A DNA stretch of 64,000 nt from Rhodocyclaceae bacterium (GTDB lineage Bacteria > Pseudomonadota > Gammaproteobacteria > Burkholderiales > Rhodocyclaceae): assembly GCA_035565355.1 (NCBI GenBank), contig DATMSM010000044.1:7373-71372 (forward strand), in the 5' to 3' direction. The translations under genes were made by a program, and so were the position numbers. The notes under the pieces are model-generated. The model was not told where the DNA came from and did not search any database. It saw only the letters and a list, made by a program, of their open reading frames with translations. Below, in pieces: positions 7,890 through 24,200 of the stretch (the stretch's first letter is position 1; every line of letters begins with the position of its first letter).

Positions 7890-8834
7890 TCAGTCGAAAT
7901 TGATTCTTTCCTGCTCAACCACGATCGGGCGCTTTTGCAGGTAGGTATGGATGGAGCCGACGTACTCGCCAAGAATGCCTATGAAAACCATTAGTACGCC
8001 GAACATGAAGAACATCCCGATCATGAGCGGCGCAATGCCCATAGGGAAGCGCTCCCAGAACAAAATCTTCGCCACTAGAAAAACCAGCGCCGCGAACAGG
8101 CTGAGCCCGCCGATCGCGAACCCGGCAAACGCCGCAAGCCGGATGGGCACCTTCGAATGGCTAATAATGCCTAGCATAGCGATGTCATATAAAGTGTAGA
8201 AGTTATTCTTCGAGATGCCACGTAAACGACGCGGTTGCTCGAACGGCACAGTTTTGATCTCATATCCCAACTCGCAGATAAGGCCGCGTACGAAAGGGTA
8301 AGGGTCGTCAATGGCGCGCAAATGATCGAGCACCTCTCGGTCATACAAGCCAAAGCCGGTAGAGTCGGCAACTAGCCGAATATCGGCAATTCGATTGAGA
8401 GAGCGGTAGTAGCTCTTGCGTATTGCATGTACCCAGGCGAACCCCCCCTGGGCTACCGGCTTTGTCGCCATGACGAGCTTATAGCCCTCCTCCCAGTGTT
8501 TGATGAACTGGGGAATCATCTCGGGCGGGTCTTGCAAGTCCGAAGCGAGATAAACGGTCGCCATGCCACGTGATTGCAAAACGCCGTAGTAAGGTGACCG
8601 GATATGACCGAAGTTACGGACATTCACAATGACCTTGACCATCGGATCAATGGCCGCCAAGCGCCTCAGCTTTTCGACGGTTCCATCCTGCGAATGATTG
8701 TCGATGAAAATGAGTTCGAAATCGTAATCGCAGACATTGAGGATCGCTGCCTTAATGCGGGTATACAGCTCGCCGACATTGTCTTCTTCGTTGTAGCATG
8801 GAGTAACGATGCTCAAAAGTTTGCGTTCAGTCAT
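7890..8834 (-). CDS. Family 2 glycosyltransferase, polyprenyl-phosphate sugar transferase type (GtrB/ArnC/CsbB-like)
   Basis: LSIVTPCYNEEDN and DNHSQDGT motifs, plus two C-terminal TM helices (LAAFAGFAIGGLSLFAALVFLVA and LMIGMFFMFGVLMVFIGILGEY), as in GtrB/ArnC. Confidence 0.85.
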   Translation of the reverse strand: MTERKLLSIVTPCYNEEDNVGELYTRIKAAILNVCDYDFELIFIDNHSQDGTVEKLRRLAAIDPMVKVIVNVRNFGHIRSPYYGVLQSRGMATVYLASDLQDPPEMIPQFIKHWEEGYKLVMATKPVAQGGFAWVHAIRKSYYRSLNRIADIRLVADSTGFGLYDREVLDHLRAIDDPYPFVRGLICELGYEIKTVPFEQPRRLRGISKNNFYTLYDIAMLGIISHSKVPIRLAAFAGFAIGGLSLFAALVFLVAKILFWERFPMGIAPLMIGMFFMFGVLMVFIGILGEYVGSIHTYLQKRPIVVEQERINFD

Positions 8835-9289
8835 GTCCGATCAGCTCCTCCGCCTTTGAAGGTAAATCTCTTATGCGCAAAATACGATACGCCTACGGTA
8901 ATAAGTATCGTCAAAGCCTGGGCCAGCCATACGCTCTGGCGTAAACCGTCAACCAGCGCCGTAAACAAGGCGATGCTCACGATGGACATGCCACCATAGG
9001 CAACATAGCAGCGGAGATACTCGCGCAGCCAGTTTCCGTGAGTCCGAAAGACGAAAAGCTTGTATGTCAGGAACGACATCGAGATCGCAAGCACATTGGC
9101 AATCAATGCGACCTCCCACGTTGCCAACTGCGGTGAGAGCTTAGCGTAAAGGAAAACGACGATGCCATATGCGAACGCGGTGTTCCACGCACCTGCAATT
9201 AGGTAGCGAACCGGCTGCCGCTGACTTGTGATTCCCAAGAGAATCGCCCCAATTTGCCTTATCCCTGCACAAAGCTTAGCGCGCCGCAT
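8831..9289 (-). CDS. GtrA-family small membrane protein (lipid-linked sugar translocase-like)
   Basis: About 150 aa with 4 TM segments. YLIAGAWNTAFAYGIVVFLY and a C-terminal FAHKRFTFK motif are typical of GtrA. Stop overlaps the GT2 start. The start is uncertain (9289 or 9322). Confidence 0.7.
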   Translation of the reverse strand: MRRAKLCAGIRQIGAILLGITSQRQPVRYLIAGAWNTAFAYGIVVFLYAKLSPQLATWEVALIANVLAISMSFLTYKLFVFRTHGNWLREYLRCYVAYGGMSIVSIALFTALVDGLRQSVWLAQALTILITVGVSYFAHKRFTFKGGGADRT

Positions 9290-10250
9290 CGGATAGTCCG
9301 GCCATTGTCCGGATGGCGTCATCCAGCGTATAGGAAAGAGTTAATTCCAGCTCGGCACGGGCTTTCGCAATTGAGGGCACATACCGATTGCGAAAGCTCT
9401 GCGCGGCAGGGTCAGGCGTTGCGGCAATCCGAACATCTTTTCCCGGAGCGACCAAATCGCGGACGAGATATGCGAGTTCTCGGATAGAAATGGCAGCGTC
9501 AGACCCAACGTTGTATGCCTGGCCCGCCCGTCCCCTGGACAGCAAAGCGTACAACCAATGAGCGAGGTCTCTTTGATCCATATATGAACGTATGGGCATG
9601 CCATCCCCATTGACAAGAATCTCTGGCGCCCCCAAGGCATCACGGACGAAATTCCCAATAGCAAAATGCACATCTTGAGGAAGGTCAGGCCCTGCAAAAG
9701 CAAAGCAACGCGCAATGACCGGCTCTAAATCGTGCTGGCTCTGGTAGAGCGCGCATAGGTGCTCTGCGCAACGTTTGGCGACGCTGTAAGCATGCTGGGC
9801 ATCAAGTGGATCCGGCATGCCGTTGTAGCTTTCGGGAATCTGCTCCATTTCCGGCGGCTGTGGGCCATACGCCCCCCCGGAACTCGTAAGGAGGAAGCGT
9901 CGGATACCACGAGACACGGCGTAGTCCAGCATATGGCGCGTGCCGTCCGCAATCTGCGTATAACGCTGCAATGACGTCAGGTTCGGCCCTAGCGTGGAAT
10001 CGGTAGCAGCGTGCAGAAGATGGGTGTAGCCGCTATCGCGGGGCAGCGTTTGCGGATCAAGAATGTCCCCCCGGTGGAAGCGCAGCCATGCATGCCCGGC
10101 GAACTCGGGGTGGCGCTCCAGAAAGACTTGCGGGGAGCGACTCAGCACCGTGACCGAGGGCGTCGCCATTCCGTGCTCGGCCAGCCCGCACCAGTGGCGT
10201 AACAAGGCCTTGCCGAAAAACCCCGTCCCTCCCGTCAATAGCAGCTTCAT
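9276..10250 (-). CDS. NAD-dependent epimerase/dehydratase-family SDR (candidate sugar ketoreductase/epimerase)
   Basis: MKLLLTGGTGFFGKALL Rossmann motif at the N-terminus and the YSVAKRCAE catalytic YxxxK. Start taken at 10250. Confidence 0.85.
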   Translation of the reverse strand: MKLLLTGGTGFFGKALLRHWCGLAEHGMATPSVTVLSRSPQVFLERHPEFAGHAWLRFHRGDILDPQTLPRDSGYTHLLHAATDSTLGPNLTSLQRYTQIADGTRHMLDYAVSRGIRRFLLTSSGGAYGPQPPEMEQIPESYNGMPDPLDAQHAYSVAKRCAEHLCALYQSQHDLEPVIARCFAFAGPDLPQDVHFAIGNFVRDALGAPEILVNGDGMPIRSYMDQRDLAHWLYALLSRGRAGQAYNVGSDAAISIRELAYLVRDLVAPGKDVRIAATPDPAAQSFRNRYVPSIAKARAELELTLSYTLDDAIRTMAGLSDAAR

Positions 10251-10275
10251 AGTCAGTGACGTCTCCGCGCTCATG

Positions 10276-11400
10276 TCAGCGTGAACGGGGAACGGCGTAG
10301 AGCACGGACTCAAAAGAGTTGAAGTAATGCTGACGAATGTAGAACGCGTAGTCGGGGCAAAGCTCGAACAACAACTCGGGCAGGGCCCAAGGGTCCTGCG
10401 GGTTATGGTAGAGCGACATGGTCAGCACGGGGCGGCAGCGTTCGATGGTACGGCGCGCGCCGTCCAGCACCTGGGCCTCCGCCCCTTCCACATCCAACTT
10501 GATGAGATCGACCTGAATCTGCGGCAGCATCTGATCAAGCGCCACGGCAGCGATGTGGATATCGCCATGCACGCCGATCTGGCCGCCTTCGCCCTGCCCT
10601 GAACTAAAGGTCAGGATGGAATACTTGTCGGCCGCCGCCAAAGGCAGGCAGATTGCCTGCGGATGCCGCACACGGATATTGCCGGTCAGGGTATCGAAAT
10701 TACCGGGGTCGGGTTCGAGCAGGAAAGCCTGTGTGCAATGGATATCGGGCTGGCTTACCAAATCAGAAAAGGTATCGCCGGTATACGCGCCGCAATCCAC
10801 GTAAGTGATGGGCTTTTTGCTCAGCGAGTGTAAGGTGATCTCATTGAAATACTGCTTTTCCTCAGAGCAGAAGCTGGCAAATGGAAGATCCAGCCCAAGG
10901 CGGAAGGCGGCCATGCGCAACAGAATGTCGCGACTCTCCTGATCCGCTAGCCGCTCGGCCACACGTGCCATGCGCTCAAGCCCGGAAATAAGGAAGTCCC
11001 GTTTGCTTAACCAGAAGCGCCAGCCCAGTTCCTGCGAGTACGCATCATATGTATCCCAGGGCATGAGCATCTGCGAAAACCCGGCCTTGGCGGCGATTGA
11101 CACCAGCTCGTCAAAAGGCGTGGCCCGGTTGAGAATCCCGAGCGCTAACTGAGAGGCCTTGTCCTTATGCGCGAGCGTAGGCCAGTCGACCACCGGCAGA
11201 TCGGAAACGCTGCCAATCTTGGGGGCTGTCTCGACAAAACCCGCCACCTGGATGCCATTCCCCTGCATGGCCCGACACAGACTTCGGCCAAAGTTACCGG
11301 CGCCGAAAATCCAGATCGGACGTGCCGCATCAATCTGTGCTGCAGGCCTTGCCGCAGCTGCGGCCAACTGGGAGAAATTAGCGTAGGGAAGCATGTTCAT
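10276..11400 (-). CDS. FkbM-family SAM-dependent methyltransferase with an N-terminal Rossmann-like domain
   Basis: YVDCGAYTGDT and LIKLDVEGAE motifs are typical of FkbM. N-terminal IFGAGNFG. ATGA overlap with the upstream ThDP enzyme gene. Confidence 0.75.
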   Translation of the reverse strand: MNMLPYANFSQLAAAAARPAAQIDAARPIWIFGAGNFGRSLCRAMQGNGIQVAGFVETAPKIGSVSDLPVVDWPTLAHKDKASQLALGILNRATPFDELVSIAAKAGFSQMLMPWDTYDAYSQELGWRFWLSKRDFLISGLERMARVAERLADQESRDILLRMAAFRLGLDLPFASFCSEEKQYFNEITLHSLSKKPITYVDCGAYTGDTFSDLVSQPDIHCTQAFLLEPDPGNFDTLTGNIRVRHPQAICLPLAAADKYSILTFSSGQGEGGQIGVHGDIHIAAVALDQMLPQIQVDLIKLDVEGAEAQVLDGARRTIERCRPVLTMSLYHNPQDPWALPELLFELCPDYAFYIRQHYFNSFESVLYAVPRSR

Positions 11401-13223
11401 GCATGAGCCGGCGTGGCAGAGACGGCTCGGATGGCCGCCGCCTCCTCGCGGATACTGTCGAGCTCGGCTGTCTGCAGGAAGGGATGCATGTCATCAAGTT
11501 CCGGGGTGATGAACTTACCGTCTTCGCCGACGCGGGACTTGATGCGCGGCACGAACTCCTGACGGGGATCGACATGCAGATCGATCAGCAGTGGGCCATC
11601 CTGCGCGAGCAACTCATCGAACTGCGCAAAATCCGCTTCGGTAGCAATGGAAGCAGCCCTCAGCCCGTAGGCACTGGCAACTGCAGCATAGTCCGGGAAC
11701 TCCACACCGGAATCGGGGGTTGCTCCAATGACGCGGCCGAAAAAGTTTTCATGCGTCTGCCAGATGGACAGATAGCCGCTATTGTTGAGCACGATCACAA
11801 CGACGTTCAGGCCGCTTGTCTTCAGCGTCTGCAGTTCCTGAATATTCATCTGCAGGCTACCGTCGCCGGCAAAGCAAATGACTCTCCGCCCGCCGCTAGC
11901 CCGTGCAGCGACCGCTGCGCCAAGGGCCGCAGGCAAATCATAGCCCATCGAGGCCGAGCCAGAGTTGCTGAACAAGCGCTGGTCTTTTTGCAAAGTCCCG
12001 ACCTGGAAAGGCAGGATGCAGGCAGAAGCGTTACCGGAGACGACGATATCGTCGGACCGCATTTGCTTGAATATGCGCTCAACCATGAGGTATGGATTCA
12101 AAGGCGCATTCGGAATCTGGCGATGCTCGTTCGAGGCTTTGTATTTCACGCCTATCTTCTGGCACCACTGCGCCCACGGCCGATAATCGGGCAGCTTGAC
12201 GGATGCAAGTTCATTTTCGAGCACATCCAGGAAAGCGGATAGATCCGCCTCCACTGTGAAGTCGACCTTGATTGTGGGCTTGTTCAATTCCACAGGGTCG
12301 ATATCGACCTGTGCCACCCAGGCATTCTTGGCGAACGCATCCCAGTTGTAGCTGGTCTGGCGAATATTGAGTCGAGAACCGAGAACGAGAACAAAGTCGG
12401 CATTCTGCAGACAGAAGTTACCGGCACGTGTACCGATGGTACCCGGTCGCCCCGCAAAGAGCGGGTGATCGGAAGCAATCAGATCGTGGGTCCAGGCGGT
12501 GGTTAGCGGGATGCCGAGGCGCTCGATGAGCGACAGCAGGCGACCTTCCGTCTTAGACAGCCGCACCCCCGTGCCGCCCAAAATCAGGGGACGATGGCTG
12601 AGCTTTAGCTTTTCCAGAATGCTGCGGCAAGCTTGCGGCAAAGACTGTGATGCGCGAGGCTGGGGCGCTTGTGGTTTCGGAATGTCGATCTGGATGGTGG
12701 ACTGCTGAATATCCAGGGGAATGTCGAGCCACGCCGGCCCCGGACGCCCCGACGTAGCCTCGATGAATGCGCTGGGCAGAGCGGACACGAGGTCTTGCTC
12801 ATCGCGGACAAGATGCGCAAATTTACAGGCCGGGGCCGCCATCGCGATGGTCGGCCCTTCCTGATCGCCCAGCTGTCTCAGTTGAGGCAGATCGTAGAAA
12901 GACACACAGGTCTCACGCTTGATTTGCCCCGACAGAATGAGCATCGGGATGGAGTCGGTAAACGCCCCAAAAACACCGTTGAGCGCATTGATCGAGCCCG
13001 GCCCTGAGGTCAACATGACGACTGCGGGCTTACCCATAATCCGCGCATAGCCTTCGGCGGCCATCGCGCAAGCCTGCTCGTGGTGCATGAAGGTACATTG
13101 CAGCCGGGGATGCCCCCCCAACGCCTGGTTGAGAAACATGGCGCCGCCGCCGGTGACAGTAAACACCTGCTCGATGCCGCGCTCAACGAGCCAGTCGGCA
13201 ATTTGCTCCGAAATACGCTTCAT
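11397..13223 (-). CDS. Thiamine-diphosphate enzyme of the acetolactate-synthase family (YerE-like candidate)
   Basis: 608 aa. N-terminal ThDP pyrimidine-binding region (VFTVTGGGAMFLNQAL...HEQACAMAAEGYAR) and C-terminal GDGSLQMNIQELQT...NN ThDP/Mg motif. Confidence 0.85.
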   Translation of the reverse strand: MKRISEQIADWLVERGIEQVFTVTGGGAMFLNQALGGHPRLQCTFMHHEQACAMAAEGYARIMGKPAVVMLTSGPGSINALNGVFGAFTDSIPMLILSGQIKRETCVSFYDLPQLRQLGDQEGPTIAMAAPACKFAHLVRDEQDLVSALPSAFIEATSGRPGPAWLDIPLDIQQSTIQIDIPKPQAPQPRASQSLPQACRSILEKLKLSHRPLILGGTGVRLSKTEGRLLSLIERLGIPLTTAWTHDLIASDHPLFAGRPGTIGTRAGNFCLQNADFVLVLGSRLNIRQTSYNWDAFAKNAWVAQVDIDPVELNKPTIKVDFTVEADLSAFLDVLENELASVKLPDYRPWAQWCQKIGVKYKASNEHRQIPNAPLNPYLMVERIFKQMRSDDIVVSGNASACILPFQVGTLQKDQRLFSNSGSASMGYDLPAALGAAVAARASGGRRVICFAGDGSLQMNIQELQTLKTSGLNVVVIVLNNSGYLSIWQTHENFFGRVIGATPDSGVEFPDYAAVASAYGLRAASIATEADFAQFDELLAQDGPLLIDLHVDPRQEFVPRIKSRVGEDGKFITPELDDMHPFLQTAELDSIREEAAAIRAVSATPAHA

Positions 13224-14333
13224 TCAAAGTCCACGATTCAAAATAAGGCTCTTCAAAGCCACGTTTTCGCTGTACGGACCATCGATGTGATTGATCGTCA
13301 AACGCTCATCCGCCTTGATCGGCGCCTGCAGCTTTTCGCCGTTCATCACTTCCCGGCATGAGAGTTGCCCCTTATGCAGAGGCACCGCAAGGTAGAAGTC
13401 CTTCTCAAAATCATCCTTGTTGAAGACGTAGCCGACATCAAGGTCGCGACGCGCATACGCACCACGAACCAACGCGTCCAGATACTCCGTCTCCTTGCGC
13501 GTGATAACGCGCCGGCTATCGCTCACACCGCCGCACATTTCCTTGGCCTTATGAAAAGCCTTGAACCAGACGTCGCATTGTTCGGGAAGCGAACAATAAG
13601 AAGAAACCGCAACCCCTTCGTAGTTGATGTCGATATGACGCTCCCAGGTCCGTGCTCCCTTACCGTAGGAGATCAGCATGGAAGAGTGCCAATCGTGGTA
13701 TTCGTGAGTGGAAAGGCCGATTACATGATTCGGATAGCGCTTGCGCAGATAGTCGACCTGATCAAGACAGAGCTCGGAGTCCTCGCTGGGATAGAGGGAG
13801 ACGCAATGATTGATGGCCAGCGGAATATCCCGCTTCTCGAAAAAACGGACCATGTCGTCGAGATCCTTTTCCGAAGCGCCGCCTGTGGAAACAATCGTCG
13901 GCCGGCGAGTAGAGGCAATCTTTTCGATCAGCATCCAGTCATTCATGTCCGAACTCGCGATCTTGATGATCGGCATGTCGAACTCCACGCACAGGTCGAC
14001 AGAAGCCTCGTCAAACGGCGTAGACATGGGAATGCATCCGACATTCCTGACCTCTTCCACCATACGAAAAAACTCAGCCTTGGAAAGCTTAGTGTCTTCC
14101 GTTTTCTTTATATACCGCAGCTCGGTATTGCCCTTGAACTCAGGATGGACAAACTCGTCCACATCGCGGAACTGTAGCTTTATCGCGGCCTTCACATTGT
14201 TGTAGCGGACAATGGCACCATGGTCGCGAACAATCTTCAAGCCCCGTTCCAGCTTGCCCCAATGGTTATTGGCCAACTCAAGCACGAAAAGATTCTCGAA
14301 CAAATCTTTATCACGTTGACTGGTGGTGCGCAT
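13224..14333 (-). CDS. N-acetylneuraminate synthase (NeuB/SpsE) family protein with a C-terminal SAF-like domain
   Basis: The ELANNHWG motif corresponds to the NeuB (I/A)ExxxNHxG motif, followed by IKIASSDMND. Size 369 aa. No neuA or neuC partner is in the window. Confidence 0.65.
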   Translation of the reverse strand: MRTTSQRDKDLFENLFVLELANNHWGKLERGLKIVRDHGAIVRYNNVKAAIKLQFRDVDEFVHPEFKGNTELRYIKKTEDTKLSKAEFFRMVEEVRNVGCIPMSTPFDEASVDLCVEFDMPIIKIASSDMNDWMLIEKIASTRRPTIVSTGGASEKDLDDMVRFFEKRDIPLAINHCVSLYPSEDSELCLDQVDYLRKRYPNHVIGLSTHEYHDWHSSMLISYGKGARTWERHIDINYEGVAVSSYCSLPEQCDVWFKAFHKAKEMCGGVSDSRRVITRKETEYLDALVRGAYARRDLDVGYVFNKDDFEKDFYLAVPLHKGQLSCREVMNGEKLQAPIKADERLTINHIDGPYSENVALKSLILNRGL

Positions 14334-14467
14334 CCTTCCTCCAAGTATCTATTTAGTAGAAGCAACGCCAGAATCAGCTGGGGCTGGCGTTCGAAATTTA
14401 TCTGAATCAACAACGATGCGGCATCGATCCAGCCGGGTAGTCCAACCATGATCGATCTCGCACTTCG

Positions 14468-15808
14468 CTAGAAGCCCACCCCGAAGAAGGACTCCAGTTT
14501 TTCAACGGTAAAATCAAGCATTTCCCGGCTCAGTCCGGGAAAAACACCCAACCAGAAAGTCCGATTCATCACGACATCCGTATTGGTCAAGGTACCGCTC
14601 ACCCTGAAGTTCCTACCCATCATGTAAGGCTGTCTTGTCAAATTCCCCGCGAACAATAGACGAGTGCCTATCTTGTTCTGCTCAAGGAAATTGATGAGAT
14701 CGACACGATCAACACCAGCACCCTCCTTTAGCACCAACGGAAACCCGAACCAGGACGGCTCTGAGTTCGGCGTTGCCTCGGGCAGATGCAGGAATTCGGC
14801 ACAGCTTTGCAGGCGCTCCTTGAGATAGGCAAAATTGGCGCGGCGCTGAGCAATGAAATCCTTCACACGATCCATCTGCGCCAAAGCACATGCCGCCTGC
14901 ATGTCCGAGATCTTCAGGTTGTAGCCCAGATGACTATAGGTGTACTTGTGGTCATAGCCCTCAGGCAGATCCCCCAACTTCCAGCAAAACCGCTTGTTGC
15001 AAGTGTTGTCCTTGCCCGGCTGACAGTAGCAATCCCTTCCCCAGTCGCGGAAAGACTCGGCAATTGTCTTAAGTTCCGCGTTATTGGTGAATACCGCGCC
15101 ACCTTCACCCATGGTGATGTGGTGCGCAGGGTAAAAACTCAAGGTTGCAATATCACCGAACGTGCCGACCAATTCTCCGCCATAGGTCGCCCCAAGCGCA
15201 TCACAACAATCCTCGACCAACCACAGATTGTGCTTTTTGCACAACGCAGTAACCACGTCCAGGTTGAAGGGATTCCCCAGACTATGCGCCAGCATGATGG
15301 CTTTGGTCTTGGGCGAAATAGCCGCTTCGATCTTGCTGGCATCGATATTGTGAGTCGCCAAGTCAACGTCGACAAACACAGGCACTGCGCCGAATTGCAG
15401 AATGGGATTCACGGTCGTCGGGAAGCCCGCCGCGACGCCAATAACTTCGTCGCCGGGTTTGATGGCGCGCTCACCCAGCTTGGGGCTCGTCAAGGTGCTG
15501 AAGGCAACAAGATTTGCCGAAGAGCCGGAGTTGACCGTTATCACATACTTCACGCCCAGGAACTGCGCGAGACGTTCCTCAAACATCGCGTTAAAGCGCC
15601 CGGTCGTCAGCCAGCCATCCAATGATGCCTCGACCATGAGCTGTAGCTCTTTGGCGCCGATCACCTTGCCCGATACCGGTATCGGTGTTTGCCCAGGAGC
15701 AAAGGGCTTTGGCGCATAAGCGATATCAGCATATTGTTGAACCAGATCGGCGATCTGGACACGCAACTTTTCGAGTTGCGCTTGAGAAGAAACGTTGGCG
15801 CTCGTCAT
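14468..15808 (-). CDS. rfbH: CDP-6-deoxy-4-keto-hexose 3-dehydrase (E1, RfbH/DdhC type)
   Basis: DegT-fold protein in which the PLP lysine position reads [14 protein letters not shown] (His instead of Lys). A C-X57-C-X1-C-X7-C spacing (DCC...[13 protein letters not shown]) was counted in the translation. Start taken at MTSANV (15808). Confidence 0.88.
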
Positions 15809-16875
15809 AGGGACTCGGTGTATTGGGAAACTTGTTCCAGGCACAGCGCACGCATATCGTGGCCCTGCAGCCATGCACGATGCCACTCAGCAACGCGTGT
15901 CAGGGCGGTTTCCAGATTCCAGCGCGGCGACCACTGCAATCGCTGACGCGCCTTGGAAATATCCAGCTTTAAGAAGCCCGCTTCATGCGGATGCTCTCCA
16001 TTTTGCGGTATCCAAGTGGCGTTATTGCCCCACGCCGTGCACAAGCGCTCGACGATCCACTGCACCGACTGGGCGTCCTCGTCACGCGGGCCGAAATTCC
16101 AGCTCTCGGCAAAAGCCTGGCCTTGTTCATGCAGACGCTCGGCCAGTACGAGATAGCCGGAAAGTGGCTCCAACACATGCTGCCATGGGCGAACCGCATG
16201 CGGATTCCTGAGCTGCACAGACTCTTGGCGCTCCAAGGCGCACAGAATATCCGGCACCAGCCGGTCTGCCGCCCAGTCGCCGCCGCCGATGACATTGCCA
16301 GCACGCGCGGTTGCCATCGCAATCCCCGCCTCTTTCAGGAAGGAGTTGCGATAAGCGCTGCTGACCAGTTCCGCACACCCCTTGCTGCTCGAGTAGGGAT
16401 CATAGCCACCGATGGGCTCGTTTTCTCGATAGCCCCAGACCCATTCACGGTTTTCGTAGCACTTGTCGGTCGTGATATTGACGATGGCCCGCACGGAAGC
16501 GGTATGGCGCGCGGACTCCAACACATGCGCTGTTCCCATCACGTTGGTGGCATACGTTTCAAGTGGCTGCTGATATGACTGTCGGACTAAAGGCTGCGCC
16601 GCCATGTGAATCACGATTTCTGGCTGGAACTCACGGACCAAGGACTGCAGCAAAGAAAAATCGCGGATGTCTGCAATGCAGTGATCCATCCCTTCCGCCA
16701 CGTTCGCTACCCGGAACAATGCAGGCTCGGTAGGCGGCGCCAAAGCGACACCGCGTACGATAGCCCCCATGCTCTGCAACCACAGGCTAAGCCAGCTTCC
16801 CTTGAAGCCGGTGTGCCCCGTTAAAAGAACCCGCCTGCCCCGCCAGAATTGCGGACGAACTTGAGCGGAGCTCAT
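15805..16875 (-). CDS. rfbG: CDP-glucose 4,6-dehydratase
   Basis: [18 protein letters not shown] and YSSSKGCAE motifs. ATGA-type overlaps with both rfbF and rfbH. Confidence 0.9.
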
Positions 16876-17642
16876 TCCCAGACTTTCCAGGGCGCCTTGC
16901 CCGACGCCCATAGCTCTTCCAGATGACTCTTGTCGCGCAGCGTATCCATGGGCTGCCAGAAGCCATGATGCAGGTAGGCGCTCAACTGCCCCTCCCTTGC
17001 GAGCCTATCCATCGGCTCCTTCTCCCATGCCGTGTCATCGCCATCAATGTAGTCCAGCACCTTGGGCGACAGAGCGAAGAAGCCCCCATTGATCCACGCT
17101 CCATCTCCCTGAGGCTTTTCCTGAAAGCGGCTTACCTTGCCTTCGCTCAGGACTAGAGCGCCGAAGCGACCAGGGGGCTGAGTTGCCGTCAATGTCGCCA
17201 GACAACCTTTTTCCTTGTGAAAAGCCAACAGTTTGGAAATATCGACATCTCCGACTCCATCACCGTAGGTACAGCAAAAATCCTCCTCCCCGAGGTAGGG
17301 GCGCAGCCTTTTGATCCGTCCCCCTGTCATCGTGTCATCCCCGGTATCGACCAGCGTCACCCTCCAGGGCTCCGCGTTGTTGTGATGCACTTCCATCTTG
17401 TTCTTCGCCATATCGAAGGTCACGTTCGACATGTGCAGAAAATAGTTCGCGAAGTACTCCTTGATTACATAGCTCTTGTAACCCAGGCAAATAATGAACT
17501 CATTGACTCCGTGGGCGGAATAGATCTTCATGATGTGCCACAGAATGGGTTTCCCACCCACCTCCACCATGGGTTTAGGCTTCACCGAAGTTTCCTCGCT
17601 AATACGAGTCCCCAAGCCTCCCGCTAAGATCACTGCCTTCAA
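16872..17642 (-). CDS. rfbF: Glucose-1-phosphate cytidylyltransferase
   Basis: [18 protein letters not shown]...[20 protein letters not shown] is very characteristic of RfbF/DdhA. 256 aa. Confidence 0.92.
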
Positions 17643-17757
17643 GTTACTTCTCCTTTGACACTATCCAATGCCGACGAATCGGGTTCTAAACCCGCATGCC
17701 GTTTCTCGGAGAGTGATACCCTGACGGCCTCTCCGACCGCCTCCAGCACTCCACCCA

Positions 17758-19596
17758 ATGACCAAATATCCAACAAGCCAGCACTTGATGCCATGGGCAG
17801 GGTATCTGTGTGCACTCGCCGTTCTGGAAATCACGTTCGGCAGATTTTTTTCTCCGGCACACACGGTGGGCCACGACTACGCAACTGCCATGCCAGGGCT
17901 ACTGGATGGCTACTACTGGTTCCTGAATAACGGCATCAGCACCCCACCTTGGTTCACCCCCGCCTTCTGCGCTGGTGTCCCACTTTTTTCCGATCCGCAA
18001 TCACTCTTCTACTCCCCCATACAATTCTTCGCCTTCTTCGCGGATCCGCTGAGGGCCTCCCACCTGGCCTTGCTCGCCTATTCGAGCCTAGGCTATCTGG
18101 GCATGTACCTGCTATGTCGGCAACGACTCGGGCTGTCGACCGCAGCCTCGATCTTTGCCGCCTTGCTGTGGATGCTAAACGGTTTTGTTACGCATCGCAT
18201 GATCATCGGCCATATTGGATTTCTCGGCATCAGCCTGATCCCTCTGCTCACCTACCTTCTCCTCTCGACTTCCACCTCCAAGCCAACCAAAGCCCTATGC
18301 ATAACAGGCGCCGGCATTCTCCTGGCCAGTTGGGTGCATTCCGGACTTGGTACGCTATTGATCGCCGCAGCGCTCTCCGTCTGGGGGTTAATCTGTATCG
18401 CCGTCATCCGCGGGGCGCCGGCTCGCGCAGCATACTTGAATAGCGTAGCAGCGGCGACTCTTGGACTCGGCCTCTCCGCATCCAAGCTCGCGGCGACCAT
18501 CAGCACCATGAGCAATCTGGAACGAACCATGTATCCCTTGCCCGGCTTTGCTTCTGTCGGCGACCTATTACTGGCCTCGTTCAGCACCATGATGCTGCCC
18601 AGCAGCCTGGCACAGCCTATGGCCTGGCCGCTTGTACACAATGCCAAGATCTACTTGGATATACATGAATGGACGTTAAACATTACGCCCATTCCATTCG
18701 CGCTCATCCTGCTTGCCGTACTGGTATCGCTCATTCGCAAGCAATCGCAGCCACTCGCCCGCCCTGCACCATCGGCGCTGAGCCATACACTGCTTCTACT
18801 ATTGATCCTATTCATTTCGCTGGCGGTGCAGTTTTATTCCCCTGGCTGGAATGCCTTTCTCAAGACCGCGCCTATCCTTAAATCGATTTCGACGCCGACA
18901 CGCTGGATGGTGCTCTGGCTGCCCATCGTCTGCGTAGGCGCTGCCATCTCACTCAATTACCTTTGCGCGCTGACGCGCAGAAAGGCCGCATGGCAAGCCG
19001 GTAGCTCACTGCTACTGTGCGTTGCTGTCAGCCTGCTGGTTTATACAGAACCGCGCCCCTACTACGAAAACCAGGGCTATGATCCGAACCCCGTTATCGG
19101 AGCCTTCGAACAAGCCAGTCGGCCAGGATTCAAGCCACACCTGGATAGGCTGGGGGCCTATATTGATTCAGCGGGCAATGTCATCTCTCCTCTGTACCGC
19201 AACAATCTTTTTATTGAGGGCGTATCCCAAGCCTTCTGTGCGAACCCGATTTTTGGTTATTTCCTTGAAGCCTACGATCCCAAAGACCTGGCGCCCGGCA
19301 GTCTTTTGAAGACACTTCCATCCGGCCATTTAAACGTTAAGAATCCGGCCTGCTATACCTTCCCGACCGAGAATCATTGCCGACCCGGCGACCATTTCCT
19401 GCCTCAGAATATTGAAGCCGCACAACGTTTTACCAACTACCAGCAGTGGGCGTTTGTACGCCCTGTCAAACAGAGCGTGTGTGATGGCCTCACGCTCGCG
19501 AGCGTCATACTCAGCTTGGGGATACTCCTGATTTGCGGCCCCCTTACCGTGCTGAAAAGTGCCCGATTCTGTTGCCCGCCGCAGCCCCCGAAGTGA
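17758..19596 (+). CDS. Large polytopic membrane protein, candidate GT-C-type (YfhO/Gtr-type-specific-like) glycosyltransferase
   Basis: 612 aa with at least 10 hydrophobic segments and a soluble C-terminal part. It diverges from the sugar operon that encodes GtrA and the GtrB-like GT2. The functional assignment rests on context only. Confidence 0.5.
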   Translation: MTKYPTSQHLMPWAGYLCALAVLEITFGRFFSPAHTVGHDYATAMPGLLDGYYWFLNNGISTPPWFTPAFCAGVPLFSDPQSLFYSPIQFFAFFADPLRASHLALLAYSSLGYLGMYLLCRQRLGLSTAASIFAALLWMLNGFVTHRMIIGHIGFLGISLIPLLTYLLLSTSTSKPTKALCITGAGILLASWVHSGLGTLLIAAALSVWGLICIAVIRGAPARAAYLNSVAAATLGLGLSASKLAATISTMSNLERTMYPLPGFASVGDLLLASFSTMMLPSSLAQPMAWPLVHNAKIYLDIHEWTLNITPIPFALILLAVLVSLIRKQSQPLARPAPSALSHTLLLLLILFISLAVQFYSPGWNAFLKTAPILKSISTPTRWMVLWLPIVCVGAAISLNYLCALTRRKAAWQAGSSLLLCVAVSLLVYTEPRPYYENQGYDPNPVIGAFEQASRPGFKPHLDRLGAYIDSAGNVISPLYRNNLFIEGVSQAFCANPIFGYFLEAYDPKDLAPGSLLKTLPSGHLNVKNPACYTFPTENHCRPGDHFLPQNIEAAQRFTNYQQWAFVRPVKQSVCDGLTLASVILSLGILLICGPLTVLKSARFCCPPQPPK

Positions 19597-19712: not shown

Positions 19713-19728
19713 TGGCATGCTCCTTGCT
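19713..19728 (+). promoter_or_regulatory. Sigma-54 (-24/-12) type promoter upstream of the short pilin gene
   Basis: TGGCAT-gctcc-TTGCT matches TGGCAC-N5-TTGCW with correct GG/GC spacing. It lies about 125 nt upstream of the pilin ATG. Confidence 0.55.
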
Positions 19729-19852: not shown

Positions 19853-20035
19853 ATGGCCAAAAAAACCCAGCGGGGTTTTACTCTGATTGAGCTGATGATC
19901 GTAGTTGCCATCATCGGCATCCTGGCTGCGATTGCCATCCCGCAATTCAGCGAATACACCAGGAAGGGCGAGAACAAGGCGGCTCAGTCCGACACTCGCA
20001 ACATCCTGACGCAAGCCATCGCCAACAGCCAATAA
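19853..20035 (+). CDS. Truncated type IVa prepilin (PilA-N-like, alpha-1 helix only)
   Basis: MAKKTQRG|[24 protein letters not shown] has the class III signal with Gly-1, Phe+1 and Glu+5. The mature part is only 52 aa. A GGAG Shine-Dalgarno lies 7 nt upstream of the ATG. Confidence 0.85.
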
Positions 20036-20052: not shown

Positions 20053-20400
20053 ATGAATCCGAATAGCAAAAAAGCGCTGGAAGCCATCCTCGTCGGCGGC
20101 GTACTGGTTGTATCCCTGAACGCGAGCGCTCAAACCGGCGCCTGCACCGGTGGTACCGGCGTGGGGATTCCGAGTGACCCAACCGCCTTCGTGAAGACCT
20201 CCTTCGTGCCGAAGTGCTCGGCCAATGTGAACGCCGTGTATCTGGACTCCGGCGCTGCCTTCAGTGTCGCGGGTTATTCCGCCAAGGGCAACCAAAGCTA
20301 TGGTGGTTCCAGCGAAGGTGGCAGCGTCAGCATGTGCACCACCTTTGGTGTCGGCGCCGCCCCGACCCTGAGCCCCAGCACGACTTCCGGCTGCTCCTGA
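20053..20400 (+). CDS. Secreted Gly/Ser/Thr-rich 4-Cys protein (candidate PilA-C-like pilin partner)
   Basis: AGGAG Shine-Dalgarno. Sec-type signal peptide (ILVGGVLVVSLNASA|QT). Four Cys in the mature part. Starts 17 nt after the pilin stop. Confidence 0.6.
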   Translation: MNPNSKKALEAILVGGVLVVSLNASAQTGACTGGTGVGIPSDPTAFVKTSFVPKCSANVNAVYLDSGAAFSVAGYSAKGNQSYGGSSEGGSVSMCTTFGVGAAPTLSPSTTSGCS

Positions 20401-20447: not shown

Positions 20448-21266
20448 ATGTCTCTGACTCCTTACACTCAACATATTTCCATCGCATGGAAGCTCGGCGT
20501 CCGCAGCCATGCCATACGCGCGCTGGTCGCATTCGGCGTGTTTCTTCTTGGCGCTGCGTTTCTCGCTGGAGCATTCTCTTTGCGCCAGCCGCTTATCGTC
20601 ACCCTGGATGTCGGCATCAGCGGCATTCGCCTACTGACGGTCTTGCTAACCCTGTTCTGGATGCAGGAAGCCTTCGTACACGACATCGAGCGCCGCACCC
20701 TGACCCTGGCCTTCAGTTTGCCGCTTGATCGCATCACCTACGTACTGGGGCGCTTTATCGGCATCATGCTTTTGATTTCGCTTGCCGTCACCACTTGGGG
20801 AGCTGCCCTTGCAATTGCCGACCAGTTTGCCAGTTGGGGCTACCCCGGGTCCTCGCGCCCGGCTTTGGGGTTGCGCTACGTCGCCATGCTAATGGGCATC
20901 ATGCTTGATGCCTGGGTTATCGGCGCATTCGTCCTCGCCGTCGCCAGTGTCGCACAAACGCCGCTATTGCCTTTTCTGACCGGTGCCGCGTTCGCGGTCT
21001 CCGCCCGCAGCATAGGCGCCGTACTCGATTACCTGAGTTATTCATCCTCCGTGGATGCTGCAACGAAGGCCTATTTCCTAAGCCTCATCGACAAGCTACG
21101 CTGGATCCTACCCGACCTCGGACTATTGGACTGGCGCGCCGCCACCCTATATGGTCAAGACTTTCCGTGGCCACAGGCGCAGTCAGGGATGGCAATTGCC
21201 TTCGGCTACCTTATTGTTTTCCTATCCATTGCCGTCTTTGCGTATCGCCGGCGAGAATTTTACTGA
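20448..21266 (+). CDS. Polytopic membrane protein, ABC-2-type permease-like
   Basis: 272 aa with about 6 hydrophobic segments. No clear Shine-Dalgarno. TGATG overlap with the following gene. An ABC ATPase is encoded 4 kb downstream in the same operon. Confidence 0.55.
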   Translation: MSLTPYTQHISIAWKLGVRSHAIRALVAFGVFLLGAAFLAGAFSLRQPLIVTLDVGISGIRLLTVLLTLFWMQEAFVHDIERRTLTLAFSLPLDRITYVLGRFIGIMLLISLAVTTWGAALAIADQFASWGYPGSSRPALGLRYVAMLMGIMLDAWVIGAFVLAVASVAQTPLLPFLTGAAFAVSARSIGAVLDYLSYSSSVDAATKAYFLSLIDKLRWILPDLGLLDWRAATLYGQDFPWPQAQSGMAIAFGYLIVFLSIAVFAYRRREFY

Positions 21267-24200
21267 TGTCCGCTCAAGCGCCAGACTCCATGCTCCCGCT
21301 CCTGCAGGCGATCCAGTCCTGCGTCAATCAGGGACAAGCTGCTGAAGCCATCCGTCTGTGGGAGGAAGCCGGGCGCCCCGAAAACCGGGAAACCCTTTTT
21401 CTTACGGCGATTGCCGTGCAGCAACTGGACGACCTCGCTTTGGCCCGAGCCAAGCTGGAGAAGGCCCTCGCGCTCGACCCGGACTACCCTCCGGCACAAC
21501 TGCGTCTTGCCCAGGTTGCGCTGAGCGCATTGGACTACCCCGCGACCATCGCCTGGGCAGACCGCTACCTGAATTACCGGCCGTACAGCCAGGAGGCCAT
21601 CAGCTGGAAGGTCTTCGCCATGCAGAAAAACGGCCAGGCGGAAGCTGCGGAGCAGGCCCTGATGGAGTACATCAGGGTTTTTCCCTATTCTCTGGCCACA
21701 GCACAATGCAGCATCGTGATCGCCAATGAACGCAAGGCCTATGTCTATGCCCTACTCATGGGAGGACGGTTACCGCTAGAGCACTGGCACAGGAGTTACG
21801 CTGGACAAACGCTGGCGGCTTGTTGCTTCCATCTCTCCCATGCGCCGCTGATGCATGCAGTTGTCGATATTGTTTACGCCGATACGGTAGCGGAAGAGGA
21901 CGCTGAATATGCTGCACTGATCGGTAATCTGGCGACGCTCGGCGACGCCTATGAAGATGCGGTGCAATGGTACACGCGTGCACGCCAACTCGACCCGCAC
22001 GCCGAGACAAGCTGGTTCAACGAGGCCATCAGTCGCTGGGCGACCGGGGACTTTGCCGCAGGAAGCATCGCCTACCGCGAACGCGGCAAGCTGATGAAGC
22101 TCATGCGTCTGGATGGAATACCGGAATGGCGCGGTGAGAATCTGGAAGGCAAGACACTGCTTGTGCATAGCGAACAAGGCAGCGGAGACGTCATCCAGTT
22201 CATCCGCTATATGCCGTATCTGCGCGAAATCGCAGGCACCGTGCTGTTCAATACCTACCCTGACATTCTTGCACTGCTGCGGACAGACGAAAAAAGTACG
22301 GCGGCCCAGGGCCTGAACGAAAGTCTCCTCGACAAAATCGACTATCAGATCTGGATGATGGACGTGCCAGGCTATCTGAGGCCGAACGGCCTTGCCGACT
22401 TCCCGGCGGATACACCCTATCTGTTCCCGCCTCAAGAAAGGGTTGCCTCATGGAAGAATCGCCTGGCCCCCTACCAAGGTCTAAAGGTCGGTCTGGTTTG
22501 GGCCGGCAACCCCGAACACGCAAATGATCCCAATCGCTCAGCCAGCCTAGCCGAATGGTCGGCATTGAGTGAACTGCAAGGCGTACACTGGTTTTCCTTG
22601 CAAAAAGGCCACGGAGAGCCAGAAGCGAGTTACCCACCGCCAGGGCTGACGCTGAACAATCTCAGCCCGGAAATTCGCGACTTTTCCGATACCGCAGCCA
22701 TCCTCGCAAATCTGGACTTGCTGATCAGCGTAGACACATCGGTGGCCCATTTGGCCGGTGCGTGCGGACGTCCTTGCTGGACCTTATTGCCGAAGCAATG
22801 CATCGACTGGCGCTGGGCCAACCAGCCCGAGATTCCGCACTACTATCCCAGCATGCGTCTGATTCGCCGACAAAAGGAGGACATCGGCTGGGATAGCCTG
22901 GTACGGCGCGAGGTCATCCCCAGGCTCATTGAGCTCGGTGCCACCACGCGTCCAACCCCATCGGAAACATCTCTATCGGCTTATGCGCAGACGCTGGCGC
23001 AGGCGCGCACTACGTTGCAGAACGGGAAGCTGAGCGAAGCGTTAACCCTGTCAGTTCAAGGACTCACGGAGTACCCAGGCGACCCTCGCCTGCAGATGGT
23101 TTGCGCCGACGCGCACATTCGCATGGGCAACAAGGTGTCTGCCGGAGAATGCGCTGCCGAAGTGCTACGCATCTTCCCGCGCAGTGTCAACGCGCATCGC
23201 ATCGCTATGCAGTCGGCCAAAAAGGACAACCTCTTGGGAATGAGTACTCATCTCCAGGCGATGTTGCGTATAGAGCCGGACAACCATGCCATCTGGCAAG
23301 ACGCTGCACGCTTCTACATGACCCACCATGCGCCGCTGATCGCCTATCTCGTCATGCGACACCTGGTGTCACTTAACCCCTCGCACTCGCATATCACTAC
23401 GCTGGCCATTTCTCTGTTGCGCTTGGGCAATCGAGATGCAGCGGCCTCCTTACTTGCAGACATCGAACCTGCGTCTGGAGACAGCCTTGAGCTCCTCCAA
23501 GAGCTCTACTACGCCTGCGCAACCCTTAATCAACGGGACAAGGCGGACCTATTGCAGTCCGCCATCACAGCCCGAGGGCCGATAGGCTCGGACCTCGGCC
23601 TGATGATAGGCTCCATGCTTCTGAGGTGGGGAGAGCAAGAGGGCTGGAAGTTCTATAACCTCTGCAATTGGCCCGACCCCGTCGAGACGCCGCTCAACGT
23701 CCCGATCTGGAACGGCGAAGCATTGGATGGCAAGCATCTGTTGATTTATCAGGATCAAGGCTATGGAGACGTCATTCAGTTCTTCCCCCTGATAAACAGA
23801 TTACCGTCGGCAAGAAAAATTACGCTCTCGGTGTTCTCCGAGGTGCGTGATCTGCTGAGCGAACAAAGTCTCCCGCGGGGGCTTGAGATCATTACCCACA
23901 AAAAGCTGTCGGAAGACTCGGCGCACTATGACTACAGAATCGGTTTCATGCATTGGGTTGCAGGCCTTGCGCCGGATTTGACCAGGCTGCCCGCCCCCTA
24001 TCCCTACCTGCGTGTATCGAGCTCTCCTCGCCTGGAGACATGGGAACAAAAGATGATGGTCGATGCTGGCTTTAAAGTCGGTATCGCATGGGCAGGAAAC
24101 CCCGCGCACTTCAACGACTACAACCGTTCCACGCAACTGGGTGATTGGTTGCCGCTCACTCAGATTTCTGGCATCTCACTGTATAACCTGCAGCGCGACC

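Follow-up and report, generated by a model that had tools for sequence, protein, structure and literature searches.

What does a 612-residue membrane protein do between an operon for a nucleotide-activated rare sugar and a pair of pilin genes? We addressed this question for the protein, here called X612, in a 64,000-nucleotide stretch (the window, whose coordinates are used throughout) of contig DATMSM010000044.1 from a Rhodocyclaceae bacterium. O-antigen, teichoic acids, lipid A and mycobacterial arabinan, as well as some pilins and streptococcal proteins, are known to be modified by three-component glycosylation from a lipid-monophosphate carrier. Because the families of GT-C glycosyltransferases share almost no sequence similarity, the GT-C enzyme of each such system had to be found individually. 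A preliminary description of the locus had joined X612 to a GtrB-like family 2 glycosyltransferase (GT2) and a GtrA-family protein, and had given it a GT-C role from genomic context only. The analysis reported here indicates that X612 is likely a GT-C glycosyltransferase working with GtrB and GtrA. It is also probable that its active site faces the periplasm and that X612 completes, as third component, a system for lipid-linked glycosylation outside the cytoplasm, which would operate by the mechanism proposed below.

X612 has the predicted fold of a GT-C enzyme

Comparisons at the level of sequence left X612 without a family. The single sequence was searched against Pfam, NCBIfam and the PDB sequences, as was a 42-member profile, and nothing usable matched. 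All of the 42 homologues that a word search returned are labelled "hypothetical protein"; a few of them gave faint Pfam matches, to DUF6044, GT-C_AftD and YfhO; all three are families of membrane proteins, and two have names that mark them as GT-C or related to GT-C. The family is large and widespread, with 840 representative clusters (50% identity) at E ≤ 1e-30 and 4372 at E ≤ 1e-3 in a profile search, and 199 matching stretches in a one-genome-per-species collection. Taxonomically, the 80 best loci span Beta- and Gammaproteobacteria, Thermodesulfobacteriota, Myxococcota, Bdellovibrionota, Nitrospirota, SAR324, Rokubacteria and a genome of a candidate phylum (Ryanbacteria), and homologues are present in the cultivable Undibacterium nitidum LX22W (L039) and Thiorhodococcus fuscus KCTC 5701 (L038). 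The X612 tree is at odds with taxonomy.

An AlphaFold2 (AF2) model of X612, built from a 42-sequence alignment, was very confident (predicted local distance difference test, pLDDT, 93.5; predicted template-modelling score, pTM, 0.93). When it was compared with the PDB by Foldseek, the only matches with a probability of at least 0.9 were GT-C enzymes, namely STT3, DPY19, AglB, Pmt4, AftB, AftD, EmbA/B, ALG9, ALG3, PglB and ArnT. Their template-modelling scores (TM-scores) range from 0.3 to 0.46 (STT3 0.42, AftB 0.43, ArnT 0.40), and the best E-value is 4.4e-4, for STT3 (6ezn_F). The modelled membrane core is structurally like that of solved GT-C enzymes, which places X612 in the GT-C superfamily by fold. 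From this model we conclude that X612 is a predicted GT-C-fold enzyme of a family lacking Pfam and NCBIfam models, and the role first suggested by its neighbours now has a structural footing.

The conserved residues of X612 lie where a periplasmic active site would be expected to draw on them. About 12 transmembrane (TM) helices are predicted, in agreement with the divergent polytopic protein of the preliminary description. The first periplasmic loop (residues 32-96) is 65 residues long and contains helix, a 72-residue loop follows the seventh TM helix, and residues 430-569 form a 140-residue, cysteine-containing periplasmic domain between the eleventh and twelfth. D40, nine residues past the first TM helix (H6-31), is kept in 97% of 183 family members, and its position is that of the catalytic Asp in solved GT-C enzymes. 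R147, H152, K243, R256, Y259, E304, K369, R382 and four cysteines are also conserved among these members; all the conserved residues are in predicted periplasmic loops or at helix ends, and none forms a WWDxG-type motif.

The C-terminal periplasmic domain (residues 431-569, window 19048-19464) was modelled alone with a pLDDT of 90.3. It is highly conserved, carrying C494, C532 and C541, three of the four family cysteines, and the motifs NPACY and PGDHF. Foldseek found no structural neighbour for it in the PDB (best E = 6.6), and we rejected its assignment as a recognisable carbohydrate-binding module on that ground.

It is very improbable that X612 is a transporter or scaffold that lies beside the sugar operon incidentally. 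No family hidden Markov model (HMM) fits X612, and some of the Foldseek matches are indeed transporters. However, these remaining matches, of the LeuT type and others, have probabilities of 0.2 or less and TM-scores near 0.1, against 0.9-1.0 and 0.3-0.46 for the GT-C enzymes, and for this reason the identification of X612 as a transporter was rejected. The conserved acidic residue at the GT-C catalytic position argues against it as well, as does a GtrB/GtrA neighbourhood that is kept in many phyla.

Several family members are longer than X612. Fusions of about 1300 residues (L018:9908-13882; also in G022; P0081) carry a C-terminal extension of about 700 residues without a Pfam match, and P0176 bears an N-terminal tetratricopeptide repeat (TPR). 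Apart from this single N-terminal TPR, no informative domain was found in the longer members P0081, P0119 and P0176 and the L018 fusion.

X612 homologues are linked to GtrB and GtrA genes

The GT2 of the window has the architecture of enzymes that load sugars onto undecaprenyl phosphate (Und-P). The catalytic domain PF00535 spans its residues 8-172, two hydrophobic helices follow towards the C terminus (about 236-259 and 270-288), as had been noted earlier, and the best NCBIfam models, PgfS (172 bits, residues 7-306) and ArnC (96 bits, residues 5-308), align over the full length. These three features together assign it to the GtrB/ArnC type. Both scores are under the equivalog cut-offs (500 bits for PgfS), so that the GT2 is a family relative of PgfS and ArnC and not an orthologue. 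The GtrA protein scores 56.9 bits with PF04138 (cut-off 26.1) and covers positions 1-117 of the 117-position model. Its gene likely starts at 9289 and ends in a TGA that shares bases with the GT2 start codon (ATGA), which makes the translational coupling that had been described plausible. The own genome, estimated complete at 2.54 Mb, contains exactly one GtrB-type GT2, one GtrA and one X612.

To place these genes in a wider context, open reading frames (ORFs) were called in 79 related loci (1.23 Mb; numbered L001 onwards) and searched with iterated HMMs, a GT2 with at least two hydrophobic (TM-like) segments being called GtrB-type. Of the 79 loci, 36 have such a gene no more than 5 kb from the X612 homologue and 21 no more than 1 kb from it; in 27 the nearest one is on the strand of the X612 homologue. 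The outer 5-10 kb flanks, 447 kb in all, hold just two, and this difference shows a gene linkage beyond chance. GtrA is found within 5 kb in 25/79 loci. Clustering of the neighbours within 5 kb gave the same picture, with GtrB in 40 loci, GtrA in 21, Methyltransf_23 in 21, proteins that join TPRs to a family 9 glycosyltransferase (TPR-GT9) in 15 of 77 and TPR-tailed membrane proteins in 10. A Pfam tally of 139 immediate neighbours was led by GT2 (17), GtrA (14), methyltransferases (9) and TPR proteins (8). GtrB, GtrA and X612 genes share one strand in L004, L018, L025, L033, L045 and L062. The link between X612 and GtrB/GtrA is conserved across phyla, which speaks against the earlier reservation that X612 might be unrelated to the pair.

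These neighbourhoods also bear on a different mode of action, in which X612 would be an en-bloc oligosaccharyltransferase passing to pilin a whole glycan that is linked to undecaprenyl diphosphate (Und-PP), assembled by the TPR-GT9 and GT2 enzymes and sent out through an ATP-binding cassette (ABC) transporter. The top Foldseek matches STT3, AglB and PglB are oligosaccharyltransferases, and an ABC exporter and cytoplasmic glycosyltransferases do adjoin the pilin. However, the commonest neighbours across phyla are GtrB and GtrA, which make and flip Und-P-linked monosaccharides; STT3 fits X612 no better than AftB and ArnT do; and a WWDxG-type motif is missing from the conserved residues. Moreover, the Wzy_C family, to which the known O-oligosaccharyltransferases of pilin belong, has no match in X612. 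En-bloc transfer is thus quite improbable. X612 was likewise rejected as an O-antigen ligase or polymerase, which the preliminary description had kept in view, and as a PglL-TfpO enzyme, since it has no Wzy_C domain (PF04932) and no Pfam match at all.

An oxidoreductase of the FAD_binding_4/ALO and DprE1 type lies directly upstream of the X612 homologue at L031:8471-9820 and in three other loci. This hints that some members of the X612 family use epimerised polyprenyl-phospho-pentose donors.

The sugar operon points to a branched dideoxyhexose donor

The minus-strand operon runs, tightly packed, in the order rfbF, rfbG, rfbH/E1, NeuB-like, YerE-like, FkbM, SDR (short-chain dehydrogenase/reductase), gtrA and GT2 (Table 1). 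RfbF, RfbG and RfbH all score above equivalog cut-offs; a YerE-like thiamine diphosphate (ThDP)-dependent enzyme and an SDR accompany them, and no E3 (AscD) gene is in the operon. The nearest solved relative of the ThDP enzyme is JanthE (8rph, E = 9e-90, against 6.5e-70 for the best acetolactate synthase), which is described as a YerE-like enzyme (PMC12188165). Taken together, the RfbF/G/H, YerE-like and SDR set follows the logic of yersiniose, with a two-carbon branch placed at C-4 of a 3,6-dideoxy-4-ketohexose activated by cytidine diphosphate (CDP). The additional NeuB-like and FkbM genes suggest a product other than plain yersiniose. The NeuB-like enzyme has its best PDB match in the uncharacterised SpsE-like 3g8r (E = 5.8e-58) and an orthologue of 79% identity in L001, and SDR orthologues of 52-62% identity stand in the same operons of L001, L013, L033 and L072. 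We therefore infer that the donor is an Und-P-linked, yersiniose-like C-4-branched 3,6-dideoxyhexose made from CDP-glucose.

That the GtrB-type GT2 consumes the sugar of its operon is supported by three observations. First, gtrA and GT2 are the last, overlapping genes of the operon. Second, in L024, L025, L045 and L072 the GtrB and the X612 homologue are the sole glycosyltransferases detected in a rare-sugar operon, in which the tailoring enzymes are a ThDP enzyme or transketolase, SDRs, FkbM, and radical S-adenosylmethionine (SAM) and haloacid dehalogenase (HAD) family proteins; in L045 the order on one strand is RfbG-RfbH-RfbF-transketolase-SDR-GtrB-GtrA-X612. Third, a nucleoside diphosphate (NDP)-sugar epimerase/dehydratase (PF01370) is fused to the N terminus of GtrB in 11 loci. 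Of the 15 loci in which GtrB shares 50% identity or more with that of the window, 11 also bear ThDP or transketolase branching genes. The earlier view that the glycosylation module is embedded in a CDP-sugar operon is thus borne out, both by the Rfb assignments and by the four related loci without other glycosyltransferases. On balance, we favour the product of the CDP-sugar operon as the donor.

Alternatively, the GT2 might load an ordinary sugar, from uridine diphosphate (UDP)-glucose, onto Und-P, while the rare CDP-sugar is used in the cytoplasm by the TPR-GT9 double glycosyltransferase. The characterised GtrB, ArnC, CsbB and DPM1 enzymes take UDP- or guanosine diphosphate (GDP)-sugars, as is established, and the other glycosyltransferases encoded at 21167-24550 of the window need a donor. 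However, the position of gtrA and GT2 in the operon, the four loci in which GtrB and X612 stand alone and the SDR-GtrB fusions all speak for the operon's own product, and we consider the use of an ordinary sugar rather improbable.

The NeuB-like gene travels with the YerE-like enzyme in L001, L024, L038 and L047 (62-79% identity), and related operons also add HAD phosphatases and a radical SAM/SPASM enzyme. The SDR-GtrB fusions near X612 homologues are 650-790 residues long (L030:5834-7816, L003, L010, L012, L015, L037, L039, L048, L056, L059 and L074). They physically join sugar-nucleotide tailoring to Und-P loading, and their GT2 part keeps the C-terminal TM helices.

Pilin and polysaccharide as candidate acceptors

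X612 is followed in the window by a split type IV pilin, as the preliminary description had recorded in part. The true start of PilA-N was placed at 19853, which gives a protein of 60 residues, and the PilA-C-like protein is rich in Ser, Thr and Gly and has cysteines. In a motif scan of the 79 loci (1.23 Mb, within 10 kb), 13 loci had pilin-type ORFs, 15 in total, compared with eight in the 2.54-Mb own genome, an approximately four-fold enrichment (Poisson p ~1e-5) whose background is one genome. In L001 the order is pilin, TfpW-like protein and X612; L047 has, on one strand, pilin, TPR-GT9, an unannotated ORF of 163 residues, GT2 and X612; and in L076 and L049 the pilin directly adjoins the X612 homologue. 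These and like arrangements look operonic. A pilin-TPR-GT9-GT2 operon converges on X612 in L006, L018 and L033. The pilin neighbourhood is therefore recurrent, but most loci do not have it.

The pilin link is scattered on the X612 tree, with 12 changes compared with a shuffled mean of 13.1, which indicates that it arose repeatedly in separate lineages and was not inherited. Accordingly, we rejected the idea that the link marks one X612 clade or a pilin-specific subfamily.

The acceptor may instead be a polysaccharide, that is, O-antigen or core of lipopolysaccharide (LPS) or the glycan of the ABC transporter and TPR-GT9 genes, with the three-component mechanism unchanged. Such an acceptor has a substantial, if less than even, chance of being the right one. 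X612 would then parallel Gtr, GT136 and YfhO, which decorate polymers after export. Every well-studied Gram-negative GtrA/GtrB system acts on O-antigen, and LPS is known to contain yersiniose-type sugars (established knowledge; PMC4753412). Genes for an ABC-2 permease, an ATPase and a TPR-GT lie directly downstream in the window, similar to the Geobacter xap locus. TPR-GT9 recurs with X612 in the 15 related loci given above, and a match to it is found on the X612 contig in three genomes of the same bacterial family as well. On the other hand, O-antigen families such as wzx, wzy and waaL (flippase, polymerase and ligase) are not among the 25 commonest Pfam families of the 139 immediate neighbours, the C-terminal domain of X612 is not recognisable as a carbohydrate-binding module, and pilin genes are enriched near the X612 family.

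Weighing this evidence, we regard a pilin or pilin-linked acceptor as possible but doubtful. If one candidate is to be named, we would choose the neighbouring split pilin (PilA-N/PilA-C) or a glycan that it carries; a polysaccharide has about the same likelihood, whether LPS or what the adjacent ABC transporter and TPR-GT9 genes produce.

A small conserved ORF of about 105-160 residues, without a Pfam match, stands between TPR-GT9 and a soluble GT2 in L006 (12574-12888), L018, L033 and L047.

The locus is a variable island beside the pilin genes

At 53-60%, the G+C content of the block between about 7.9 and 28 kb is lower than the 62-64% of its immediate flanks. X612 is found in five of 151 genomes of the bacterial family and in neither of two genomes of the same genus. 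Both same-genus loci, L096 (G050:C11:6001-26000) and L097 (G128:C319), retain the flanking genes and those for the ABC permease, the 270-residue protein and the ATPase, and G050 also retains the PilA-N and PilA-C-like genes. Other genes take the place of X612 and the CDP-sugar operon in both; G050 has there a TPR-GT41 gene, placed directly upstream of PilA-N, together with genes for a PAP2 protein, an amine oxidase and uncharacterised membrane proteins of 613 and 672 residues. Kept flanks around a replaced interior show that the locus is a swappable glycosylation island beside the pilin, and the pilin locus is thus a hypervariable glycosylation island.

Relation of X612 to known three-component systems

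In its proposed logic, the window shares with the phage GtrA/GtrB/Gtr(type) systems of Shigella and Salmonella a GT2 with two C-terminal TM helices that loads Und-P, a candidate flippase in GtrA, a periplasmic polytopic GT-C enzyme, and adjacent gtrA and gtrB genes. It differs in that the X612 gene is divergent from gtrA/gtrB, that the pathway leads to a CDP-derived branched dideoxyhexose where the phage systems use UDP-glucose, and that no O-antigen genes are nearby in the window. A tblastn search with X612 gave zero matches at E ≤ 1e-3 in 50,697 phage records, and a phage-type Gtr serotype glucosyltransferase was rejected on this result; there were also zero matches in 72,556 plasmid records.

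The three-component architecture is likewise common to the window and to CsbB/GtcA/YfhO of Bacillus and Listeria, which acts on teichoic acid. The YfhO model, at 835 positions, exceeds X612 by about 250 residues; moreover, the hosts of X612 are Gram-negative and its acceptor would be a different one. X612 was rejected as a YfhO protein, as PF09586 did not match it at E ≤ 1 and one of the 42 members gave a faint match (E = 0.007). PF09586 is absent from the own genome, and in 201 genomes of the phylum it found matches to the C-terminal end only, in three. The terms "YfhO-like" and "Gtr-like" of the preliminary description therefore hold for the mechanism, but "YfhO-like" fails as a statement of family.

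With respect to the acceptor, TfpW, the arabinosyltransferase of group IV pilin in P. aeruginosa, offers the closest idea, by analogy. TfpW O-glycosylates pilin in the periplasm from a polyprenyl-phosphate-linked sugar, D-arabinofuranose made through DprE1/DprE2, and has 11 TM helices and a C-terminal TPR domain (bioRxiv 10.1101/2020.04.19.049825). In both cases a GT-C gene adjoins the major pilin gene and an essential or conserved acidic motif lies in the first periplasmic loop. X612 differs in having no TPR, in its cysteine-containing 140-residue periplasmic domain with a twelfth TM helix behind it, and in being paired with GtrB/GtrA. A TfpW-type identity was rejected, as X612 has no TPR match and ends in a small cysteine-containing fold and a TM helix. 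Membrane proteins with C-terminal TPRs, the architecture of TfpW, adjoin X612 homologues in 10 loci (for example L001:8043-9890, L049:1-5078 and L061:6326-8290); L049 has three in tandem, and L001 has one between the pilin gene and X612.

GT136 (Citrobacter youngae ORF12), a family defined by its non-similarity to existing glycosyltransferase families, has about 11 TM helices, a helical periplasmic domain after the first and a catalytic D31 (PMC11127046). By described architecture only, the likeness to X612 is striking, with an Asp after the first TM helix (D31 and D40) and an extra periplasmic domain after the eleventh; the layout of D40 and the periplasmic loops also fits that described for ArnT (PMC11127046). 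In contrast to the GtrB/GtrA of the window, the GT136 system makes its donor with a polyprenyl-phosphoribose synthase dependent on phosphoribosyl pyrophosphate (PRPP) and uses a MATE flippase (PMC11127046). Its C-terminal domain is a carbohydrate-binding module, whereas that of X612 has no structural neighbour.

The PgfS/PgfM and GtrB/PgtC2 systems of streptococci (PMC12041528) are related to the window through the GT2, which has PgfS as its best-scoring model. Their GtrB-type and GT-C enzymes O-glycosylate Ser/Thr-rich regions of extracytoplasmic proteins (PMC12041528), and a reaction of this kind is what we propose for PilA-C. The differences are a Gram-positive host, UDP-derived sugars, other GT-C families and a PgfS score far under its cut-off. 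The ArnC/ArnE-F/ArnT system of lipid A also loads a modified sugar-nucleotide onto Und-P, its ArnC aligns with the GT2 over the full length, and ArnT (5f15) resembles the X612 model in structure (probability 0.97, TM-score 0.40/0.44). However, the window has no arnA, arnB or arnD, and its flippase candidate is GtrA and not ArnE/F. X612 was rejected as an ArnT/PMT_2 enzyme (PF13231, PF02366), with no match in X612 or the 42 members, while PF13231 finds two other genes of the genome.

Proposed mechanism

We propose that glycosylation by X612 would proceed as follows. RfbF, RfbG and RfbH, identified by equivalog HMMs, would supply CDP-4-keto-3,6-dideoxyglucose. The YerE-like ThDP enzyme would then add a two-carbon branch at C-4, the SDR would carry out a reduction, and the FkbM and NeuB-like enzymes would tailor the sugar further, which would probably yield a yersiniose-like branched dideoxyhexose. 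At the cytoplasmic face, the GtrB/ArnC-type GT2 may place this sugar on Und-P, and GtrA, by analogy, may help the Und-P-sugar across the membrane. Finally, X612 would transfer the sugar from Und-P to a periplasmic acceptor, for which the model and the conservation pattern suggest D40 as the catalytic base and R147, H152, K243, R256, K369 and R382 as the residues that hold the lipid phosphate.

Several points weigh against this proposal or against its extension to pilin. On the side of the enzyme, the Foldseek E-values are modest (4e-4 to 0.08) with TM-scores of about 0.4, and no sequence model of the known GT-C families in Pfam, NCBIfam or the PDB fits X612. Roughly half of the related loci lack a GtrB gene within 5 kb, and the own genome has two more PMT_2-type GT-C genes, which are possible users of the same lipid-linked sugar. 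With regard to the donor, the E3 reductase needed by E1/RfbH is absent from the operon's gene list, and we know of no GtrB-type enzyme that accepts a CDP-sugar. As for pilin, 66 of the 79 loci have none within 10 kb, a count that favours polysaccharide, and the background rate for pilin was taken from one genome. Nothing about the acceptor can be read from the C-terminal periplasmic domain. Furthermore, an exact sigma-54 -24/-12 element (TGGCAY-N5-TTGCW), the only exact match in the window, lies at 19713-19728, 125 nt upstream of the PilA-N start, which suggests that X612 and the pilin are transcribed separately.

Even so, the analysis gives a predicted fold and a probable role to members of a large and widespread family, otherwise annotated only as "hypothetical protein". 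It also ties this family to elaborate sugar pathways (ThDP/transketolase branching, radical SAM enzymes, methyltransferases), which implies that the donor range of GtrB-type enzymes extends far beyond UDP-glucose and includes CDP-sugars. Within the known three-component scheme, the locus combines an unclassified, widespread GT-C family with GtrB/GtrA in Gram-negative bacteria, a CDP-derived branched sugar, and a variable island by a split pilin. A more far-reaching reading, that X612 founds a new GT-C family that O-glycosylates the type IV pilin (split PilA-N/PilA-C) with an Und-P-borne, yersiniose-like C-branched 3,6-dideoxyhexose, is in our view somewhat unlikely. If true, it would provide the first CDP-activated sugar in the GtrB/GtrA lipid-monophosphate route, as far as we know, and the first dedicated glycosylation system for Geobacter-type split pilins, with the whole unit in a swappable island that differs from species to species within one genus. 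A pilin acceptor would also mean a new pilin-masking system in environmental Rhodocyclaceae; pilin glycosylation blocks pilus-specific phages (bioRxiv 10.1101/150227).

Layout of the locus and additional observations

The features of the locus are collected in Table 1. The rfbH ORF extends to 15886, with 15808 as the likely start. X612 is divergent from rfbF across a 115-bp spacer, in which a scan for the sigma-70 consensus gave no match and did not locate the promoter position. Downstream of the pilin genes follow those for an ABC-2 permease, a double TPR-GT9 protein, a 270-residue protein, an ABC ATPase and a methyltransferase.

Table 1. Features of the X612 locus in window coordinates.
Feature	Coordinates	Strand	Evidence and remarks
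GtrB/ArnC/PgfS-type GT2, predicted Und-P sugar loader, 314 aa	7890..8834	-	PF00535 E=1.5e-25
GtrA-family small membrane protein, candidate Und-P-sugar flippase	8831..9322	-	PF04138 E=2.9e-15
NAD-dependent SDR (epimerase/dehydratase family), candidate YerF-like ketoreductase	9276..10313	-	PF01370 E=2.2e-33
FkbM-family methyltransferase	10276..11400	-	PF05050 E=3.5e-14; TIGR01444; presumed sugar tailoring
YerE-like ThDP-dependent carboligase	11397..13223	-	All three TPP (thiamine pyrophosphate) domains; predicted C-4 two-carbon branching
NeuB-family (SpsE-like) enzyme	13224..14333	-	PF03102 E=3.7e-35
RfbH/E1, CDP-6-deoxy-4-hexulose 3-dehydrase	14468..15808	-	NF011936 E=1.4e-227, 756 bits vs cut-off 423
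RfbG, CDP-glucose 4,6-dehydratase	15805..16911	-	TIGR02622, 516 bits vs cut-off 278
RfbF, glucose-1-phosphate cytidylyltransferase	16872..17642	-	TIGR02623, 467 bits vs cut-off 300; first operon gene
Divergent intergenic region rfbF/X612, 115 bp	17643..17757	.	Presumed shared promoter region
X612, predicted 612-aa GT-C-fold membrane glycosyltransferase	17758..19596	+	AF2 model and Foldseek
PilA-N, 60-aa helix-only Geobacter-type type IV pilin	19853..20035	+	PF07963 E=3.7e-11; candidate acceptor or acceptor part
PilA-C-like secreted protein	20053..20400	+	Translation; N-terminal hydrophobic segment; candidate O-glycosylation target

The two PMT_2-type genes of the own genome lie elsewhere. One (C56, 2915-4612) is in a polysaccharide cluster and could in principle share the Und-P-sugar. 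The other, in the stretch C51:2486-4955, is followed by a gene whose translation, read by eye, resembles a UbiA-family polyprenyl-phosphate phosphoribosyltransferase. With this neighbour the C51 gene probably has its own donor, and judged from sequence the two genes look like a second, pentofuranose-type lipid-linked glycosylation pair in the own genome.

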